DNA of 64,000 nucleotides from an uncultured archaeon (GTDB taxonomy: Archaea > Asgardarchaeota > Lokiarchaeia > Sigyniarchaeales > SOKP01), in contig CAZWEM010000013.1 of the NCBI GenBank assembly GCA_964632315.1, forward strand, positions 24,907 through 88,906. Direction: 5' to 3'. Each line of letters begins with the position of its first letter. The stretch's first letter is position 1. The notes under the pieces were generated by a model, which made no database searches, was not told the origin of the DNA, and worked only from the letters and a program-made list of their open reading frames with translations. A program made the translations under genes and the position numbers. Shown here one piece after another: positions 36,499-47,012 of the stretch.

Positions 36499-37059
36499 AT
36501 GAGTAAAGACTCTAGTGATATTGTTTTCCAAGGTCGAACTGAGGCAATATTTAAAGTAATTGTTATTGGAGATCCCGCCGTGGGGAAAACTAGCTTACTT
36601 ACCAAGTTTTCTACTAATAAGTTTGAGGAGCGTTACGTGGCAACGGTTGGGGTAAATATAGTTAAAGAACCAATCTCCTTAGAAACGCAGAACGTCACGG
36701 TGAACTTGATGTTTTGGGACGTTGCTGGACAACCCCAATTTTACATGCTTCATCGACCATATTTCAATGGAGCGGACGGTATGATTTTAGTATTTGATGT
36801 CACGCGTTCTAGCACGTTCAGTAATGTAAATAATTGGTATACTACAGCAGTCAAGTATGGATTAAGCCATATTCCTCGCATTTTAATAGGAAATAAAATT
36901 GATCTTAACGATGAAAGAAAAATCATTCTACCAATGGCTGAACATTTAAGTGAAAAACTAAACGCTCCATATTTAGAGACTTCGGCATTAACTGGTGAGA
37001 ACGTGAAATTCGTGTTCAATAAAATCGCGCAATTGGTATATGAGTCAAAAGCTTCATAA
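36499..37059 (+). CDS. Rab-like small GTPase
   Basis: GDPAVGKT, TVGV, WDVAGQ, NKID, ETSA. Confidence 0.92.
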   Translation: MSKDSSDIVFQGRTEAIFKVIVIGDPAVGKTSLLTKFSTNKFEERYVATVGVNIVKEPISLETQNVTVNLMFWDVAGQPQFYMLHRPYFNGADGMILVFDVTRSSTFSNVNNWYTTAVKYGLSHIPRILIGNKIDLNDERKIILPMAEHLSEKLNAPYLETSALTGENVKFVFNKIAQLVYESKAS

Positions 37060-37181
37060 ATTTCATTTTTCTCTCTAAATTTTTTCTGAATGATTATTCA
37101 AAACACTTAAAAGAGAATCTTCTTTTGTTTGCATACTTATTTAATTTTATTCAATAGTAATTAAGACAATATGGTATTGAT

Positions 37182-37334
37182 ATGACAGAAATTAAATTAC
37201 AAATAAATGACAAAGAAATTCGATTAAATGAAATAATGAGCACAGTTCTTACTAACATTAATATGGGCTTTATTAATGCATTAAATGACATTCCAGAGGA
37301 AAAAAAGAAGCTAACTCTCGAAATTTCTTTTTAA
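37182..37334 (+). CDS. Small protein, 50 aa (MTEIKLQINDKEIRLNEIMSTVLTNINMGFINALNDIPEEKKKLTLEISF)
   Basis: Below the ORF-track cutoff. ATG 37182, TAA 37332-34. Beta-beta-helix-beta pattern resembling the C-terminal domain of archaeal MobB-like proteins. Confidence 0.55.
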   Translation: MTEIKLQINDKEIRLNEIMSTVLTNINMGFINALNDIPEEKKKLTLEISF

Positions 37335-37483
37335 ATCTCATTAATGCATTGAAAAAGAAGAAAATCTTTGTGTCTAATCCAACAACTTATAGACTTTGTT
37401 GATGAAGATTTTTAGATTTTGATGATAAATTAAACAATTCTACGAGCTTTCTTCTCATTTTTACAATTAGACAAGGATTAGTA

Positions 37484-38179
37484 CTAATCTTTCACATCTA
37501 ACTTGTTTATCCAGAAAGTAATTCGTTCTTGCAAGTATTTATCAAAAGCAGTTGAATCTGGATCATTTTTATCAAAAGGATCAGAGAATGACTTAATGCT
37601 ATTTAACCTGTTAATAACTTGAGATATCTCATAATTTATCCTGTGTCCTCCTGTAAATTCAAAAATCTCTTCCTTAATCTTTCCTAGCGGCTTTACGAGA
37701 GTTTGTGGATCACTAATTGAACTTATTTGGTCCTTCAAATCGTTAAATTGCTTGATGATTCCTAATTTAACATCTGTAGCAACTTTTTCTCTTTTTATTG
37801 TTCCCAATTCTTTATCATCATCTTTAGAAATAGTCTTTACATTTTGTACAAGGTTTTGAATAAGCTCTAAGTCTTTTCGAAGTTGCCTTTGGCTTTCTAT
37901 TACTGTGTTGAGTTGAGGCTTCATGCTTTTTATATCCAGGGTTGCTTGACTTAAATCATTAACCTTATCGGTAAGTTTGTTAAGTTTTAAATTAGTTTGA
38001 CCCAACTTTGTAATTAAATCAAGTCCAAATTTTTCTAAAATTGAAGAAAATTGAGAAAGTTTTTCCTCAAGTTCTCTAAACTTGTCATCAATATAGTTTT
38101 TATCCACCATGCGAACTTTTTCACTTTTATTTTGTAAGATTACCTGAGAGAAAATTATAAACTGGGTGGAAAATAACAA
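37484..38179 (-). CDS. Coiled-coil hypothetical protein
   Basis: Heptad-rich; true start probably MVDKNY (ATG near 38110). Confidence 0.6.
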   Translation of the reverse strand: MLFSTQFIIFSQVILQNKSEKVRMVDKNYIDDKFRELEEKLSQFSSILEKFGLDLITKLGQTNLKLNKLTDKVNDLSQATLDIKSMKPQLNTVIESQRQLRKDLELIQNLVQNVKTISKDDDKELGTIKREKVATDVKLGIIKQFNDLKDQISSISDPQTLVKPLGKIKEEIFEFTGGHRINYEISQVINRLNSIKSFSDPFDKNDPDSTAFDKYLQERITFWINKLDVKD

Positions 38180-38275
38180 TTTTTTTATTATTCTTCTTTA
38201 TTTATTAATATAATATTCAAATTTAAATTCAAGCTTTATTGAGAAAAGAAAGTAAGTACAAATCTTAACGATTGC

Positions 38276-39175
38276 GTGATTACAATTATACAATATTTAA
38301 ACCTCTTAACTAAGGACGGAAAGAGTCTCATTTTTAGGAACTATGGGAGCTCGGACGTAGATAGAGATTTATTAGCTGGTTTTCTAAGTGCGTTTTCAGG
38401 GTTTATGAAAGAGATAAGTCAACAAGAGATAAGATCTACAGCTACAGACGAATTTAAATACTATTATACCATAATTGATGACATAATTATTGTCGTGTGT
38501 GCTGATTTGGATGATGACGATACAACAATTAATTCAAAAATCACCACCATAAAAAATAAATTCATAGAAAATTATGGTGAGATTATATCTGATGGGTCAT
38601 GGGCAGGAAATCGCTCTGTTTTCAATTCTTTTGAGAAAGTAATCGATGATACCATTTTAGGTGCAATAAAAGTTTCAATCATCGGAATGGGTGGCGTAGG
38701 TAAAACAACTTTACTTCATCTAATTTGTGGAACTGATGTTGATCTAGAATATATTCCAACGATTAATGTCGACATCACGAATTATGATGGTTCAGAATTA
38801 GGGTTGAATCGTAGTATAGTTCTATGGGACTTTGCAGGCCAAGAAAATTTTCGATCCTTATGGAAAAGCCTTTTAGATTCTACGGATATTGCGTTATTGG
38901 TATTAGATTCAAGCTTCGAAAATGTTAATTCCAGTAAAGATATCATTGCCGATATATTGGATAAATATTATAAAGATGTTCTTGTAATCGGAATAGCAAA
39001 CAAACAAGATCTGCCTAATCGATTAACATCCGATTTCTGTGAAAAAATCATTGCAAAAGCAGACAGACACCCCCCTATTAAAGTTCATGGGATGATCGCG
39101 ATCAATCATGTATATAGAGAAAAAATTCATGCTATTTTAACAGAAGCGATAAATCAATTGTATCCGATAAAATAA
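38276..39175 (+). CDS. Longin-domain / small GTPase fusion
   Basis: N-terminal longin-like DG.SLI.R...DLLAGFLSA...F.KE; C-terminal GMGGVGKT, PTI, WDFAGQ, NKQD. Confidence 0.85.
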   Translation: MITIIQYLNLLTKDGKSLIFRNYGSSDVDRDLLAGFLSAFSGFMKEISQQEIRSTATDEFKYYYTIIDDIIIVVCADLDDDDTTINSKITTIKNKFIENYGEIISDGSWAGNRSVFNSFEKVIDDTILGAIKVSIIGMGGVGKTTLLHLICGTDVDLEYIPTINVDITNYDGSELGLNRSIVLWDFAGQENFRSLWKSLLDSTDIALLVLDSSFENVNSSKDIIADILDKYYKDVLVIGIANKQDLPNRLTSDFCEKIIAKADRHPPIKVHGMIAINHVYREKIHAILTEAINQLYPIK

Positions 39176-39248
39176 AGATACATTCAAATGATATTACATA
39201 TCAATCATCCTTTAGGTGTTCATTTCTTATTTTTAATTATTAGCCTAA

Positions 39249-41054
39249 ATGTTTTTAAAAATTACATTACTACTTGTTAATATAATTTCTGGGGTATACA
39301 TTGTGTTAGAATACGAAATGGAAGAAATAGAAATAATAAAAGATGAGAAGATACAAAAAGTAATATTACCGAGATTAACAGAGGAGGAGAAAGGAATCAT
39401 TGATCCTATCGTAGCACCTACCTCTGGATTAAGAATACAAATTTTAGATGAAAATGATCAAAATCATAAAACTAAATACATATTAACAAAAAGAAAATTC
39501 TATCTCTATTTAAGAGTCTTAAAAGCAATAAGTATCAAGTATCAACAACTTAAGAGTGATAATCAGTTAAAAGTGTTAATAGTAACTGATGATCGACCAA
39601 CGAGACACGTACTACTGAAGTATAGTTCCCAAATATTTGCTCAAGATGGATTTGAAGTCTATTTCCAAAGTGATGATGATGACGAGTCTCGTATATCCTC
39701 TCCATATGGAGCTGCTTCGGTCAGATTGTTAAAGGATATAGACTTGATTATCGTTTTAACTGCATCTCATAATGATTTAACGTGGAATGGTATAAAATTT
39801 TATATTGACTATCCGATCCCCATGTCGGGGGATCTTTTTAAAGAAATTTCATCAATCGCATTAAACTTAAATGAAATTGAATTGAAAACAGACCTGATAA
39901 TACATAGAATTGATGCTGAGAAAAAAAATAATGAATATGTAATGAATTTACTAAAGGGAGTATTAGAAATTGAGAGTATTAAGGGAAAAAACATAGTGAT
40001 TTGGCCTTATCTCGGTAAAGCAAATGGAATTGTAAATTTATTTAAGAATTTTGGGGCCAATGTCATTTTAATTAATGAGGAGATCAACCCTCCAAATCCC
40101 ATCTTAGTAGTTAAGGAGGATAAATTACAAAAAGTAATGAGAGAAAACAATTCTAATCTTGCTCTATTATTAGATGCTGATCGCGATAGAATTGCATTAT
40201 ATGTGCATGAAAAGCAAAAAGACGAGTTTTCATATTACATTCCCAATGAAATTTATTCTGCCATGCACAATATATTAGCTAAAGAATATCAAAAACGTAT
40301 AATCAATGTCAGGACAATTCCAAGTGATTTAAGGGCTGATAAGTCGAGTTTCTTAAATATTTTAACTGGTGTAGGATATAAGCATATAGGTATTATTCTT
40401 TACTTTTTATTGGGAATTGATGTTGAAAAGTCGAAAGTAGAATCTGCGATCCTTTATTTACAAGCTGAAAATGGAGAGCTCATAAAAATCAATAACCCAA
40501 AGACCCTTAAAGAAGAAATTACAAAATGCTTGAATAGAAATGGAATTATCAATTCAAAATTTATAATAGTTATGTGGGAGGAGTCAGGTGGGCACACGCT
40601 CAATGTGATTTCAATCGAAAAAGATGAAGAACAAGGCTACAAATTTAAAGCTGAATTTCCTCTTATCGCAGATAAATATCCAGTACCGGCTTTAGTTATC
40701 GCTGCTGAGTTGATCTCCCGTGGATATGTTATCTCTGAATCAATTGACTGGTCAATAAAGGGAATTAATAGAACTATTCCCGCAAATGATGAAGAAAAGG
40801 TGAAAATTATGAAAAACTTTGAAGAAAATGATGGAAAAACAATTCAAATTAAGGATAAAAAGTATCAAGTGCGAGCATTATCCGACAATAGTGGAGAGGT
40901 AGACATCTACCAATTGAAAAGTAAGGATTCTACATTATACTTTAGACCTAGTGGCACTGGTCCAGAGGTTAGGTTTTATATATTTGGCAAAAGGGAAACG
41001 CATTTAGATGAGATAAAAACCGTTCAACAATACGTAAAAAATAACTATTCCTGA
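39249..41054 (+). CDS. Phosphohexomutase (PGM/PMM superfamily), divergent
   Basis: TSGLR, TASHN, NGIKF, DADRDR, EESGG, RPSGT. Confidence 0.85.
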   Translation: MFLKITLLLVNIISGVYIVLEYEMEEIEIIKDEKIQKVILPRLTEEEKGIIDPIVAPTSGLRIQILDENDQNHKTKYILTKRKFYLYLRVLKAISIKYQQLKSDNQLKVLIVTDDRPTRHVLLKYSSQIFAQDGFEVYFQSDDDDESRISSPYGAASVRLLKDIDLIIVLTASHNDLTWNGIKFYIDYPIPMSGDLFKEISSIALNLNEIELKTDLIIHRIDAEKKNNEYVMNLLKGVLEIESIKGKNIVIWPYLGKANGIVNLFKNFGANVILINEEINPPNPILVVKEDKLQKVMRENNSNLALLLDADRDRIALYVHEKQKDEFSYYIPNEIYSAMHNILAKEYQKRIINVRTIPSDLRADKSSFLNILTGVGYKHIGIILYFLLGIDVEKSKVESAILYLQAENGELIKINNPKTLKEEITKCLNRNGIINSKFIIVMWEESGGHTLNVISIEKDEEQGYKFKAEFPLIADKYPVPALVIAAELISRGYVISESIDWSIKGINRTIPANDEEKVKIMKNFEENDGKTIQIKDKKYQVRALSDNSGEVDIYQLKSKDSTLYFRPSGTGPEVRFYIFGKRETHLDEIKTVQQYVKNNYS

Positions 41055-42628
41055 ATTATTCCTGGAATAATTATTCTATTCGCTTCGATTCGAATCAACC
41101 CTTTTTCTTGTAACTTCTTCATTGTTGATAAGGTCTCTTCTTCATCCCATTCTAAGCTACTCATAAAATCATCTTTCGATAAAGGTTTTTTAAAAAGAGC
41201 ATGCGAAATGAACTTCTTTTCTTTTTGAGTTAATTTAATATCCTTGAATAAGAAAATCTGATGTTCATTTAAAGTTAATGATGAAGAAACTAGGCTCAAT
41301 TCCATCAACTCTTTTAGGGTAGATAGAATGATCTCTTCCTTAATATCAGGGAATTTTTTTAAAATATAGCTCTGAATTTTTTCAAATTGAGCCATTCCTC
41401 CGTTGAGAATTGAATACTTTTCGTGAAAACGTAAAATTCTTTGAGATATTGCTTCATCTAATTCGGTTGATTCATTGATCATTTTTTTCTTTGGGAGGCT
41501 TTTAACCGAAGGTTTTTTATCAAATTTAATTTTTGGTAACTTTTCTTCAGTTTTTACATCTTTTTGTTCAAGCTCGTTTAATTCGCTTAGATCTTCATGG
41601 ACTTCTTTCTTTACCTTCTCAATTTGCGATTTTAACCTTTTCTTAAGCTCTTGCCGTCGTATCTCTTTCTCTTCTTGTTTTTTTTTCTCAAATTGGATTT
41701 GAGCATTAAAAAAATCTTTCCATTTATTTACTTCCGATTCATCTTTAAAACATTCGACGATGATTTGATCATTTAATATCTCAAGTAATTTCTTATGTTT
41801 CATCCCTGATAATACTTTTTCTGTATACTGATAATCCCATTGAGTGAGTTCAAGTAATTTTTCAATACTTAAATTTGGATAGTCGTATGCAAATGAAAGA
41901 ACTACTTTTTCTGGATTAGTAATTTCAATATCTAAATTCTTAGTAATTATGAAGTAGAAAAAAGGATTAATTTCAATGACATCTCGAATAAGATTAGTCT
42001 CTTTCATTAAATTGAATATTGGTAAAATGTCTTCATCCTTTAGGTTTTTAACCGTTGAAAAGATATGATATTTAATTTCCTGAATTGGAATTAAATCTTG
42101 TTTATCGAGATTATTCTCTCGTATAATTTTAAGAAACCTTCGAGACATTTTTTCATAAAACATTCCCTTTCCAATGTCAACTTTCTTTTCTGTCCGAAGA
42201 TCTTGATCCAAGGCTTCGAGTTTCTCAATAGTATCCGAAAGATTTGTTAAATCCTCTGCTAATTCTTTTTTTGATTTTGGCAATGCTGACATTAAGCCAG
42301 CAGTAGTCAAGCGATATTCCTTTCCTCCTTTCTCAATTAGTTCTGTTTCAAACCCTTCAGATTGTGCCCTTGCCAATTTCATTTTTTGGCTTACATCATC
42401 TTCGATATACTTTTCTGTTTCTGCTATGATTTTTGATATTTTTAAAAGCTTTTCTTTAATTACATCTTTTGATTCCTCTCTGATTATGACATTTTGAGAG
42501 CTAATTTGATCTTTCGTCTCGATTTCTGATTTTAGTGATTCGATATGTTTCTTATATCTCCAGCTGTAAAGTAAAAAAAATATCGTAAAAACCAATGAGA
42601 TAACTAAAGAAATAATCAAAGCTTCCAT
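41045..42628 (-). CDS. Membrane-anchored protein with two tandem EAP30 (ESCRT-II Vps22/Vps36-like) double winged-helix modules
   Basis: N-terminal TM and coiled coil. Module 1: GMFYEKM..LIPIQEI..DEDIL..EKVVLSFA..W....EKVL. Module 2: NGGM..W....TLSTMKKL..KGLI..IIIPG. Confidence 0.7.
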   Translation of the reverse strand: MEALIISLVISLVFTIFFLLYSWRYKKHIESLKSEIETKDQISSQNVIIREESKDVIKEKLLKISKIIAETEKYIEDDVSQKMKLARAQSEGFETELIEKGGKEYRLTTAGLMSALPKSKKELAEDLTNLSDTIEKLEALDQDLRTEKKVDIGKGMFYEKMSRRFLKIIRENNLDKQDLIPIQEIKYHIFSTVKNLKDEDILPIFNLMKETNLIRDVIEINPFFYFIITKNLDIEITNPEKVVLSFAYDYPNLSIEKLLELTQWDYQYTEKVLSGMKHKKLLEILNDQIIVECFKDESEVNKWKDFFNAQIQFEKKKQEEKEIRRQELKKRLKSQIEKVKKEVHEDLSELNELEQKDVKTEEKLPKIKFDKKPSVKSLPKKKMINESTELDEAISQRILRFHEKYSILNGGMAQFEKIQSYILKKFPDIKEEIILSTLKELMELSLVSSSLTLNEHQIFLFKDIKLTQKEKKFISHALFKKPLSKDDFMSSLEWDEEETLSTMKKLQEKGLIRIEANRIIIPGIIQE

Positions 42629-42795: not shown

Positions 42796-44058
42796 GTGAA
42801 AATGCAAGAAAAAATTATTAACGATGAAATAAATGAAAAAATGACCTTGGAAAACGTATTTAAGATTTTTAATGACAACGTGTTTCCAATGTTAAATGAG
42901 GAAGAAAAGGAATTTTGTAACGATCTCCAAGAATTTTCATTAGATCTTCATCCTAAAATTGATAAGTCTAAAGATGTATATGTTCTATTTCCTGAATTAG
43001 GGAAAAGAGGCTACATGCAACGCATCAATAAATGGAAAGATTTCACTCCTTATGGCATGAAGAAAGAAATCCTCCTTGGCATGCATCTTTCGATGCTTGA
43101 TCCTCAACTCGAATTAGCTCGATTGGCTTCTGGAATACTTTGTGGAAATCCCACCTTCCATTATTATCAACATGGTGGTAAAGGAGATACAATTCAGAGG
43201 GTTCAAGACGAGTTAATGTCTGGACAGAAAATAGGGTGCATCGGAATTACAGAACCTTCCAGAGGTTCTGATGCCGTGAATTTGACGACCATTGCGACTA
43301 AAACTGATGATAGTGTGATTTATAATGGAGAAAAAGTATACACGACTAACGGACCTAAAGCAGATTATTTCTGTACTTATGGTGTCTATAATGATCAAGA
43401 TCCACGAGGGACAATGGTTCAAGCAATGATAAAACGTGAATTTGGTGTTAGAACCGAACGTTTAAAGATAAATTCAGTGCCTCGAGTTCATATTGCTCAC
43501 ACAATTCTTAAAGACGTGAAAATTCCAAAAGATTATATTCTTGCCGATGATGGAATGGGTTACGTGAGACTTTTCGAAGGTCTAGTTCCTGAGAGGCTTG
43601 GTATTATGGGTTCTGGAATTGGTATCTGTTGGGCAGGATTGATCTATGGAATTATCTATACGAATCTAAGAAAGCAATTTGGCAAGCCCGTAATGAGATA
43701 TCAAGGTGTAGGATATGGATTAGCGGATTTACTGACTAAATCTACAGCAGCTACAAGCTTAGCTTTGCAAGCAGCTACAATTTATGATGATAAAATTTTA
43801 TTTTCAGAAACGAAAAATAAAGAAGCAGAAAAGTGGGTAGCAGGGATCTCATCTCAAGGAAAATATTACACAGCAAAGCTTACTCATGAGATTTGTTATG
43901 AGGTTCAGCAACATATGGGAGGTGTTTCTGTTACTGATAATACTCCTGTCGATGAATTAACCGATGTGAGCAAAATCGAAGAAGTTATAGGTGGAGCAAG
44001 AAACATTCAATTGTTATTGATTCAAAATCAAATCCTGAGATATTTAAAATTTCTCTAA
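42796..44058 (+). CDS. Acyl-CoA dehydrogenase
   Basis: ITEPSRGSDA, NGEKVYTTNG, ER, RKQFGKP, QHMGG, IGGARNIQ. Confidence 0.9.
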   Translation: MKMQEKIINDEINEKMTLENVFKIFNDNVFPMLNEEEKEFCNDLQEFSLDLHPKIDKSKDVYVLFPELGKRGYMQRINKWKDFTPYGMKKEILLGMHLSMLDPQLELARLASGILCGNPTFHYYQHGGKGDTIQRVQDELMSGQKIGCIGITEPSRGSDAVNLTTIATKTDDSVIYNGEKVYTTNGPKADYFCTYGVYNDQDPRGTMVQAMIKREFGVRTERLKINSVPRVHIAHTILKDVKIPKDYILADDGMGYVRLFEGLVPERLGIMGSGIGICWAGLIYGIIYTNLRKQFGKPVMRYQGVGYGLADLLTKSTAATSLALQAATIYDDKILFSETKNKEAEKWVAGISSQGKYYTAKLTHEICYEVQQHMGGVSVTDNTPVDELTDVSKIEEVIGGARNIQLLLIQNQILRYLKFL

Positions 44059-46550: not shown

Positions 46551-47012
46551 ATGCGAGATAAACGATTTGTTGCAGTGCATCGGGGAGGCCCCCTCACCAA
46601 GGATCATCATCATCAATTAATTAAATGGGCAAGAAAATGTTCAGAACACGTGCTAACACTTATCGATCAAGAGATAGATCCACGGTTAATTCATGCTTTA
46701 AATGTTGCAAAAGAATGGGAACAAGATAACACTATAGTAGGTGAAGCACGAAAGGCGTCTTTAGGAGCAATCGCAGTAGCAAATGAAACCCCAAACCCTA
46801 TTATAACTGCGGTATCCCGATCCATTGGACACGCAGTAGCGACAGCCCATATGGCAGACCACTCAGTAGGTGCTGCTGAATATGCTCTTAAAGCAGTGAA
46901 ACTTTCAGGGGGCTCAATTGAACTCGAAAGGAAATGGCAAGATGCAAAATTAAATCCTGAAATTTCAGAACTTGTTTTAACAACAAGAGAAAAGAAGAAA
47001 CTTAGGCTATAA
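46551..47012 (+). CDS. Imm5-like putative immunity protein
   Basis: WA..C.EHVL, DPR, R.IGHAVATAHMADH, A.YA, ERKWQ. Confidence 0.7.
   Translation: MRDKRFVAVHRGGPLTKDHHHQLIKWARKCSEHVLTLIDQEIDPRLIHALNVAKEWEQDNTIVGEARKASLGAIAVANETPNPIITAVSRSIGHAVATAHMADHSVGAAEYALKAVKLSGGSIELERKWQDAKLNPEISELVLTTREKKKLRL

Follow-up and report, generated by a model that had tools for sequence, protein, structure and literature searches.

What is a protein with the features of two ESCRT-II cores and a membrane anchor doing in an Asgard archaeon, encoded by a gene that stands apart from the ESCRT genes? The question came from a sequence-only reading of the window (the whole stretch of 64,000 nucleotides analysed here), which proposed a membrane-anchored, single-chain, double ESCRT-II-like protein outside any ESCRT operon, a mimic of the Vps22-Vps36 pair and a candidate for an undescribed system. 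The gene is complete and lies exactly where that reading had placed it, at 41045..42628, on the minus strand, with an ATG start, 527 codons and a stop (41045-47) according to the open reading frame list and the translation. It has 25 full-length homologues, at 39-87% identity.

The N-terminal membrane anchor (aa 2-24; 42557..42625, minus strand) is predicted to run N-out/C-in, has a Kyte-Doolittle mean of 2.7, and is modelled by AF2 as a helix with pLDDT 84-91. Residues 3-23, at the extreme N-terminus, are hydrophobic and carry no charges, and basic residues R24, K26 and K27 come just after. Across 44 family members K+R averages 0.07 ahead of the anchor and 4.0 in the 12 residues behind it, an asymmetry which by the positive-inside rule suggests that the bulk of the protein is cytoplasmic. 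The transmembrane helix first noticed at about aa 3-23 is thus borne out by hydrophobicity, by the charge pattern in 44 members and by the AF2 helix; topology prediction, proposed with it as a check, gives N-out/C-in from the charge distribution of the same members. A sub-threshold match of the anchor to a designed transmembrane protein in the PDB was set aside as noise. Behind the anchor comes a predicted cytoplasmic helical stalk (aa 25-145; 42194..42556, minus strand), for which AF2 draws helices at 2-45, 54-89, 94-115 and 120-143 with low pLDDT, and in which the 44-member family alignment reveals a conserved motif, E..I..G.K.Y...SA.P (aa 94-117; 42278-42349, minus strand). When aa 50-150 were compared by hhalign with the steadiness-box region at the N-terminus of canonical Asgard Vps22, no likeness was found (probability 0.4%).

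The remainder of the chain is dominated by two modules. Module 1 (aa 146-296; 41741..42193, minus strand) is an EAP30/Vps22-type core, consisting of a helix, winged helix 1 and winged helix 2, and module 2 (aa 386-527; 41048..41473, minus strand) is a second such core, with a highly conserved C-terminal winged helix. That the two are similar had been seen by eye, and profile comparison places the likeness far beyond chance: hhalign aligns residues 146-296 with 383-527 over 144 columns at a probability of 98% (E 1e-12), and an HMM for either module finds the other in nearly every family member, at E values from about 1e-7 to 1e-13. The order of anchor, module 1 (about residues 150-300) and C-terminal module 2 is kept in nearly all representatives, which are 520-770 aa long. 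The motifs singled out earlier in module 2 hold up across the family, where NGG (409-411), W494, K509-G510 and P522-G523 are invariant or nearly so; invariant residues of the module include W494, Q507, K509, G510, R513 and G523, and its last winged helix is the most conserved surface of the protein.

Sequence profiles and fold comparisons alike show both modules to be true relatives of EAP30/Vps22 proteins. Aligned with hhalign to a profile of 32 Asgard EAP30 sequences, module 1 reaches 96.8% (E 2e-10) and module 2 95.5% (E 1.4e-8). In HMMER searches of a PDB sequence set, the best match to the module 1 profile is human SNF8 (E 0.016, 130 residues), with the motifs that the sequence-only reading had matched element by element again paired in the alignment; for the module 2 profile SNF8 ranks second (E 0.055), after a NirD-like single winged helix. 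The module HMMs also recognize the EAP30 protein of this genome's own ESCRT cluster, at E 7e-9 and 3e-8. When 400 Asgard genomes were searched with the family profile, the two matches outside the family that were examined both proved to be PF04157 proteins (E 1e-8 and 6e-8), one of them encoded inside a Snf7-UEV/Vps23-Vps28-EAP30 cluster; a further weak match was a 387-aa frame (G147:C36, E 8e-7). Sequence identity to Vps22 is only 12-19%, and the Pfam EAP30 model fails on the 527-aa protein, with no hmmscan match at E <= 10. A PF04157 search of the whole genome found matches on contigs C21, C6 and C59 and missed the locus of this gene. Scanning Pfam and NCBIfam, or the PDB with the single sequence, returned only sub-threshold noise (HTH_Crp_2, NirD-like HTH).

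Structure comparisons lead to the same family. An exhaustive VIA search of 48,161 chains ranks human SNF8 (3cuq_A; Z 11.6, 148 aa) first for module 1 and yeast Vps22 (1w7p_A; Z 11.4, 146 aa) second. The top three Foldseek matches of this module are all Vps22 (TMq 0.63-0.68), its top match in the ESM Atlas is an SNF8 cluster (TM 0.72), and its stand-alone AF2 model is confident (pLDDT 89.6, pTM 0.79). For module 2 (model residues 380-527) the leading whole-module matches are again human and yeast Vps22, the VIA scores being Z 14.7 for 2zme_A (145 aa, rmsd 3.0) and Z 13.8 for 1u5t_A (145 aa, rmsd 2.3). Each module therefore has the same core as Vps22/SNF8/EAP30 proteins (PF04157; 3cuq_A, 2zme_A, 1u5t_A, 1w7p_A), one helix then two winged helices, superposing over 145-148 residues with rmsd 2.3-4.0 A and Z 11.4-14.7, and with the GxG.FY helix, NGG and the W of the last winged helix among the aligned motifs.

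DNA binding is common among winged helices, and a membrane-tethered nucleic-acid binder with four of them, whether a tether for chromosome, plasmid or RNA or a membrane-bound transcription factor, has to be weighed at this point. Single-domain MarR-type matches do reach Z 9-10, and there are weak Pfam matches to HTH families at E about 0.02. The MarR-type regulators, however, cover about 60 residues (Z at most 9.9-10.6) and fall below the whole-module Vps22 matches; as a whole-unit match Vps22 clearly outranks SelB, Rpc34, MarR and UFL1/DDRGK1. The sequence-only reading had held that a better match to generic transcription-factor winged helices than to EAP30 would count against it, and over the whole module the better match is Vps22. 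Moreover, the modules are mildly acidic, with a mean pI of 6.3 and mean net charges of -1.6 and -3.3, which fits winged helices that bind protein rather than DNA; the sole basic part of the protein is a disordered linker. We consider a nucleic-acid binder very improbable, and assignment to the generic DNA-binding class (MarR, Crp) was rejected on the short matches and the negative charge.

In the proposal of a Vps22-Vps36 mimic, the part that stands is that both modules are of EAP30 type. The correspondence to Vps22 plus Vps36 is weakened: Vps36 chains score much lower than Vps22 chains, neither module is closer to Vps36, and in a phylogenetic tree module 1 and module 2 form two clades of their own on long branches, apart from the canonical Asgard Vps22 clade. 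Since both modules are nearer to Vps22 and sit in separate clades, the resemblance to the Vps22-Vps36 pair is one of analogy, not orthology. According to PMC9192718, Asgard ESCRT-II consists of a single soluble Vps22/36-like protein together with Vps25, with Vps36 present only from eukaryogenesis on. Profile comparison groups that canonical protein (asCOG cog.002769) with the family described here, and the same organisms have both; in this genome the canonical protein is a 241-aa gene product encoded beside Vps25 and Vps4 on contig C21. It is soluble, single-core, about 240-250 aa long and has a steadiness-box-like N-terminus, whereas the family described here is double-core and membrane-anchored. 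Eukaryotic Vps22 is likewise soluble and recruited peripherally, in contrast to the 527-aa protein with its two cores per chain, transmembrane anchor and long stalk. The Vps22-Vps36 heterodimer of eukaryotes also brings together two diverged, paralogous EAP30 cores, but as separate polypeptides that attach peripherally through PI3P and ubiquitin, membrane attachment being the task of the Vps36 GLUE/PH domain; here there is one anchored chain.

The segment between the modules begins with a long charged helix modelled by AF2 (aa 297-353; 41570..41740, minus strand; 15 K+R and 14 D+E), highly variable in length across the family, and continues into a disordered basic Pro/Lys linker (aa 354-385; 41474..41569, minus strand; pI 9.9), with pLDDT < 50 over residues 345-387. 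A linker motif, IK...KP.VK.LP (aa 367-379, inside 41492-41536, minus strand, which covers aa 365-379), is present in at least 50% of 44 diverged members. AF2 draws stalk and connecting helix as long helices at low confidence, and coiled coils there are no more than plausible. The domain make-up is very probably an anchor and a stalk followed by two paralogous cores of Vps22/EAP30 type, with a flexible charged tether between them. In the full-length AF2 model (pTM 0.38) the modules are confident singly and their mutual arrangement is undefined.

Such a tether, about 90 to 310 aa long across the family, would be needless for a fixed intramolecular pair, and it favours a reading in which the protein is a membrane receptor whose modules do not pair with one another; each would heterodimerise with the canonical soluble Vps22-like protein by way of the EAP30 dimer interface, thereby tethering up to two ESCRT-II units to the membrane or, as a negative regulator, sequestering them. 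Lokiarchaeal Vps22 self-associates (PMC9192718), and the N-terminal helix and first winged helix, which form the Vps22-Vps36 interface (PMC10936438), are kept in the modules. Against it, the clades of both modules are separate from canonical Vps22 and on long branches, and the gene is not co-located with the canonical Vps22 gene. On balance a receptor of this kind seems improbable.

The genomic setting confirms that the gene lies outside any ESCRT operon. It adjoins a phosphoglucomutase-like gene and an acyl-CoA dehydrogenase gene, which recur in 28 and 22, respectively, of 30 family loci; Vps4, Vps25 and the canonical EAP30 gene of the same genome are all on contig C21. No ESCRT gene was found near the family gene at any of the 30+ loci examined, and the association with Vps25, ESCRT-III, Vps4 or ESCRT-I genes that marks described Asgard Vps22 genes was not found. 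The neighbours run convergently or divergently relative to the gene, which is in no operon with them. A coiled-coil gene, a longin-GTPase fusion and the phosphoglucomutase-like gene stay in loose synteny with it throughout the order, an inversion and insertions notwithstanding. As evidence of function, synteny between relatives is weak.

A gene always away from ESCRT clusters, accessory and in loose synteny with such neighbours could encode a winged-helix scaffold that is tethered to the membrane and no longer part of the ESCRT pathway, with partners such as the small-GTPase/longin proteins encoded nearby or a ubiquitin-like conjugation machine. Further partners are suggested by the pair of conserved linear motifs that lie outside the modules. 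ER-anchored DDRGK1 scaffolds UFL1, and the layout of the 527-aa protein (transmembrane helix, K/E-rich helix, winged helices) recalls that of DDRGK1; UFL1/DDRGK1 chains do appear among the weaker Foldseek matches. These reach a TMq of 0.32 at an rmsd of about 10 A, however, against 0.68 and 3.5 A for Vps22. Homology to DDRGK1/UFL1 was rejected, the overall layout alone being alike: PF09756 (DDRGK) and PF09743 (UFL1) miss this locus and instead match an 801-aa frame (799-aa ORF) on contig C59, so that a separate DDRGK/UFL1-like fusion protein exists elsewhere in the genome. No match to the Pfam Ufm1 model was found in this genome at E <= 0.01. Given also the convergent and divergent neighbours and the weakness of synteny as evidence, we regard a scaffold outside the ESCRT pathway as possible, although unlikely.

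The family is accessory. It comprises 64 representatives among 1.84 billion proteins and is confined to one Asgard order (Lokiarchaeales-type), three closed genomes of which carry members. Of 41 other genomes in the genus of the present one, 14 have a member, as does one of 54 genomes of a sister genus, and none was found in five genomes of the first genus that are 99-100% complete; EAP30 and Vps25 are retained in both genera despite this patchiness. Canonical EAP30, by contrast, is nearly universal, being found in 135 of 151 Asgard genomes. Viral contigs searched with the family alignment yielded no relative, leaving a viral origin of the patchy distribution unsupported. The description of the system as novel agrees with our literature phrase searches, which found no published account of a membrane-anchored or double EAP30 protein; none was found in PMC10936438 (main text and part of the supplement), nor in the available portions of PMC9192718 and of the 2025 MK-D1 ESCRT preprint. 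A sentence in a 2020 Asgard-diversity preprint names "the fusion of two EAP30/Vps37 domains" as an arrangement found also in eukaryotes, a remark that probably refers to ordinary tandem winged helices.

The reading we favour, at a rough probability of 0.45, is that the 527-aa protein is a diverged ESCRT-II paralogue that acts as a membrane-resident ESCRT-II-like platform, docking Vps25/ESCRT-III. Its single transmembrane helix (N-out, C-in) would put the stalk and both Vps22/EAP30 cores at the cytoplasmic side of the membrane and would stand in for recruitment by lipids and ubiquitin. Carried on one chain, the two cores would provide the two-fold valence of the Vps22-Vps36 pair that forms the stalk of eukaryotic ESCRT-II, or of the Vps22 homodimer of Loki- and Heimdallarchaea. 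A winged-helix partner, most obviously Vps25, would bind to the conserved C-terminal winged helices, and ESCRT-III would be recruited via Vps25 at the membrane site holding the protein.

Several observations count toward the platform: the homology of the modules to EAP30, the Vps22 fold, the internal duplication, the kept architecture, the cytoplasmic orientation and the acidic modules, as well as the presence of Vps25, Vps4 and canonical EAP30 in the genome. The C-terminal winged helix of both Vps22 and Vps36 binds Vps25 (PMC539351; PMC10936438), Arg83 of yeast Vps25 pairing with an Asp in each (Vps22 D214, Vps36 D548; PMC539351), and the equivalent domain of module 2 is the protein's most conserved surface, which also favours the platform. 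In PMC9192718, Vps22 is reported to homodimerise in Loki- and Heimdallarchaea, again bringing together two EAP30 cores, and Asgard Vps25 to bind ESCRT-IIIB; a two-core unit would therefore be the expected working form. Weighing against the platform are the lack of ESCRT linkage, the accessory distribution, the failure of the Pfam EAP30 model and the undefined packing of the modules (pTM 0.38).

A stronger version, in which the single chain is a self-contained, membrane-integral ESCRT-II whose modules pair as a Vps22/Vps36-like pseudo-heterodimer and nucleate Vps25/ESCRT-III filaments at a fixed site in the membrane, without ESCRT-I or ubiquitin, we hold to be doubtful. At the eukaryotic nuclear envelope, LEM2/Heh1 together with CHMP7 starts ESCRT-III assembly in a site-specific manner without ESCRT-I or ubiquitin. 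That system offers a functional analogy only, as a membrane-attached winged-helix platform, and homology is claimed for the winged-helix fold alone. CHMP7 binds membrane by means of its ESCRT-II-like tandem winged helices (PMC5069351) and also contains a fused ESCRT-III domain, which the 527-aa protein lacks.

One Asgard order has thus duplicated and diverged the EAP30 core, fused the copies in one chain and anchored both to the membrane. Were the pseudo-heterodimer true, transmembrane ESCRT adaptors that act at a specific site would have a precedent in archaea, and the protein would be an independent Asgard case of the EAP30 duplication and divergence that lie behind eukaryotic Vps22 and Vps36. 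Should the protein feed into ESCRT-III, it would represent a simple, genetically compact means of recruiting scission machinery to a defined membrane, and would bear on the organisation of membrane remodelling at a time before endosomes.

The double-EAP30 gene is a single 527-residue open reading frame with an ATG start on the minus strand (window 41045-42628), across which the plus-strand frames are rich in stops. It looks monocistronic, because it is convergent with a phosphoglucomutase-like gene (39249-41054, plus strand), the 3' ends of the two overlapping by 10 bp (41045-41054), and divergent from an acyl-CoA dehydrogenase gene (42796-44058, plus strand) beyond an AT-rich spacer of 167 bases. 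Its 25 near-full-length homologues (39-87% identity) all come from Lokiarchaeota/Promethearchaeota and are all annotated 'hypothetical protein'. In the AlphaFold2 model of the full-length protein, built from a 19-sequence alignment, a helix that starts at residue 2 and takes in a hydrophobic stretch (3-23) is followed by low-confidence helices as far as residue 143. The first confident unit consists of a helix (152-171) and two winged helices (182-228 and 238-291); a 57-residue helix (297-353) and a disordered basic Pro/Lys segment (354-385) lead to the second, again a helix (386-404) with two winged helices (412-460 and 468-520).

Foldseek with the full-length model returned human and yeast Vps22 as its top three matches. 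By VIA, the Vps22 matches fall on residues 380-527 (Z 14.7 and 13.8, 145 aligned residues, rmsd 2.3-3.0 A), about 3 Z units above matches to single winged helices. Module 1 (residues 146-296), folded alone with pLDDT 89.6 and pTM 0.79, was compared with 48,161 PDB representatives; SNF8 (Z 11.6, 148 residues) and yeast Vps22 (Z 11.4, 146 residues) came first and were the only high-scoring matches to the whole module, MarR-type domains ranking next with Z <= 9.9 over ~60 residues. Foldseek placed Vps22 at TMq 0.63-0.68 (rmsd ~3.6 A) for this module and everything else at TMq <= 0.45, and in the ESM Atlas a eukaryotic SNF8 cluster (TM 0.72) led a runner-up at 0.46. The sequence-only reading had set generic transcription-factor winged helices against EAP30 as the competing identity. 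Because whole-module Vps22 matches outrank single winged helices, EAP30 is the better fit of the two.

Aligned by hhalign, residues 146-296 and module 2 (383-527) match with 98% probability (E 1e-12, 144 columns), and an HMM of either module detects the other in nearly every family member, so that the two are homologous. The protein escapes detection by Pfam's own EAP30 profile. Of all PDB sequences, the one that the module 1 profile matches best is that of human SNF8 (E 0.016, 130 residues), in an alignment that returns the motif-by-motif pairing with SNF8 listed in the sequence-only reading; the module 2 profile matches SNF8 at E 0.055. A profile built from 32 Asgard EAP30 proteins aligns by hhalign with module 1 at 96.8% probability (E 2e-10, 133 columns) and with module 2 at 95.5% (E 1e-8, 117 columns), and the module HMMs match the ESCRT-cluster EAP30 of the same genome at E 7e-9 and 3e-8, values from a small database. 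When the family profile was run over 400 Asgard genomes, the matches examined beyond the family were two proteins that hit PF04157 (E 2.5e-25 and 8e-9), one within a Snf7-UEV/Vps23-Vps28-EAP30 cluster; a third, weak match (G147:C36, E 8e-7) was left out of this set. A language-model search ranked EAP30 clusters directly behind the protein's own. Sequence and models concur in identifying both modules as EAP30/Vps22 cores.

A DDRGK1/UFL1 identity was excluded for the double-EAP30 protein. Separately, contig C59 of the same genome encodes a 799-residue protein (L108:427-2826, minus strand) that matches the UFL1 E3 ligase family PF09743 (E 1e-14) and DDRGK PF09756 (E 4e-10) in one chain, and is apparently a winged-helix scaffold of fused UFL1/DDRGK1-like type; a search of this genome for Pfam Ufm1 gave nothing at E <= 0.01.

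Across 44 family members the anchor occupies the very first residues, with essentially no basic residues ahead of it and four within 12 residues behind. This arrangement marks it as a signal-anchor and not a cleaved signal peptide, and by the positive-inside rule most of the protein would lie in the cytoplasm. The 44-member alignment also conserves two motifs outside the modules, E..I..G.K.Y...SA.P in the stalk (residues 94-117) and IK...KP.VK.LP in the basic linker (367-379); no similarity was found between the stalk and the steadiness-box region of canonical Asgard Vps22. Both modules are mildly acidic, and it is very improbable that the protein serves as a nucleic-acid tether. The evidence shows a protein that is anchored in the membrane, faces the cytoplasm and bears two cores of the Vps22 type.

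Searched exhaustively by HMMER with module 1, a set of 1.84 billion representatives yielded only 64 proteins at E <= 0.001. Nearly all full-length members (520-770 residues) begin with the anchor at residue 1, carry module 1 at ~150-300 and end in module 2 at the C-terminus, with a tether of ~90 to 310 residues between the modules. Among the 400 Asgard genomes the family is confined to the window's own order, where it occurs in 45 of 134 genomes of f1, the window's family (the window's genome being extra), 11 of 14 of family f3 and all four of f4; 14 of 41 other genomes of the window's genus have it, and one of 54 in a sister genus. A module 2 search found no member in five same-genus genomes that are 99-100% complete, and in one of these the phosphoglucomutase-like and acyl-CoA dehydrogenase genes lie adjacent, with a 200-bp gap at the expected site. 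Two copies in tandem occur in some same-family genomes (G176:C208:37-3512; G175:C211:36380-39847). Viral relatives were searched for and none was found. A 547-residue homologue from the order's most distant family (L040:5817-7457, minus strand) is recognised by the HMMs in its anchor, its stalk and module 1 alone, its C-terminal 240 residues going unrecognised as module 2; module 2 is matched by a separate 410-residue frame at another place in that genome.

Since canonical EAP30 and Vps25 are found in most of these lineages, the family supplements the ESCRT set as an accessory and does not replace it. It is improbable that the protein instead pairs with the soluble canonical Vps22 as its membrane receptor or regulator. 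In two genomes of the more distant family, the Vps25 match (G143:C1:3448961-3449791 and G142:C23:6768-7592) has a single in-frame TGA, which could reflect a frameshift, split gene, recoding or assembly error.

In a tree of 25 module 1, 25 module 2 and 39 canonical Asgard cores, module 2 sequences fall on one side of a branch (SH-aLRT 92), as do the canonical proteins (99) and, except for one long-branch paralogue placed inside them, the module 1 sequences. Neither module is a recent copy of the canonical Loki gene. Because branching within module 1 mirrors that within module 2, the double protein predates the radiation of the family; the tree is unrooted and made by a quick method, and we therefore claim no order of events. 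The long-branch paralogue is a second stand-alone EAP30 protein of the window's genome (contig C6, L002:1411-2322, minus strand; 303 residues, PF04157 E 3e-6), with an N-terminal helical extension, encoded beside an MFS transporter and outside the ESCRT cluster.

Of 30 loci, 28 have the phosphoglucomutase-like gene next to the double-EAP30 gene, and 22 the acyl-CoA dehydrogenase gene. Three genomes further away in the order, some of them closed, still have the coiled-coil gene, the longin-GTPase fusion and the phosphoglucomutase-like gene as a block within ~5 kb, inverted and with insertions before the double-EAP30 gene, and the dehydrogenase is still adjacent in two of the three. In the window, the run at 36499-41054 comprises a Rab-like GTPase, a 231-residue coiled-coil protein, the longin-GTPase fusion and the phosphoglucomutase-like gene; this run and the dehydrogenase (42796-44058) remain near the gene across the order (L037, L038, L039). 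The neighbourhood is conserved synteny and a weak functional hint. That the protein is a winged-helix scaffold departed from the ESCRT pathway is unlikely, though to be taken seriously. Also in the window, a 153-residue frame (46551-47012) matches the Imm5-like putative immunity family (PF21805, E 3e-35); no toxin gene was seen among the neighbours scanned.

In the searchable text of ESCRT surveys and preprints we found no description of a membrane-anchored double-EAP30 architecture, apart from a sentence of ambiguous meaning in a preprint of 2020. What is now documented for this member comprises the gene's polymorphic presence or absence at a syntenic locus, the tree of three clades in which the topologies of the two modules mirror each other, the anchor topology read from charge, the conserved motifs outside the modules and the exclusion of DDRGK1/UFL1. 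In ESCRT-II, two EAP30 cores form a stalk, the last winged helix of each binds one Vps25, and Vps25 recruits ESCRT-III (PMC10936438, PMC539351); a Vps22 homodimer supplies the two cores in Loki and Heimdall archaea, and Vps25 binds ESCRT-IIIB (PMC9192718). By analogy, the two cores of the single chain would form an ESCRT-II-like stalk, the last winged helix of each would dock a Vps25, and the docked Vps25 would recruit ESCRT-III. The simplest reading, to which we tentatively give a probability of about 0.45, is that the double-EAP30 protein may be a single-chain, ESCRT-II-like platform resident in the membrane.
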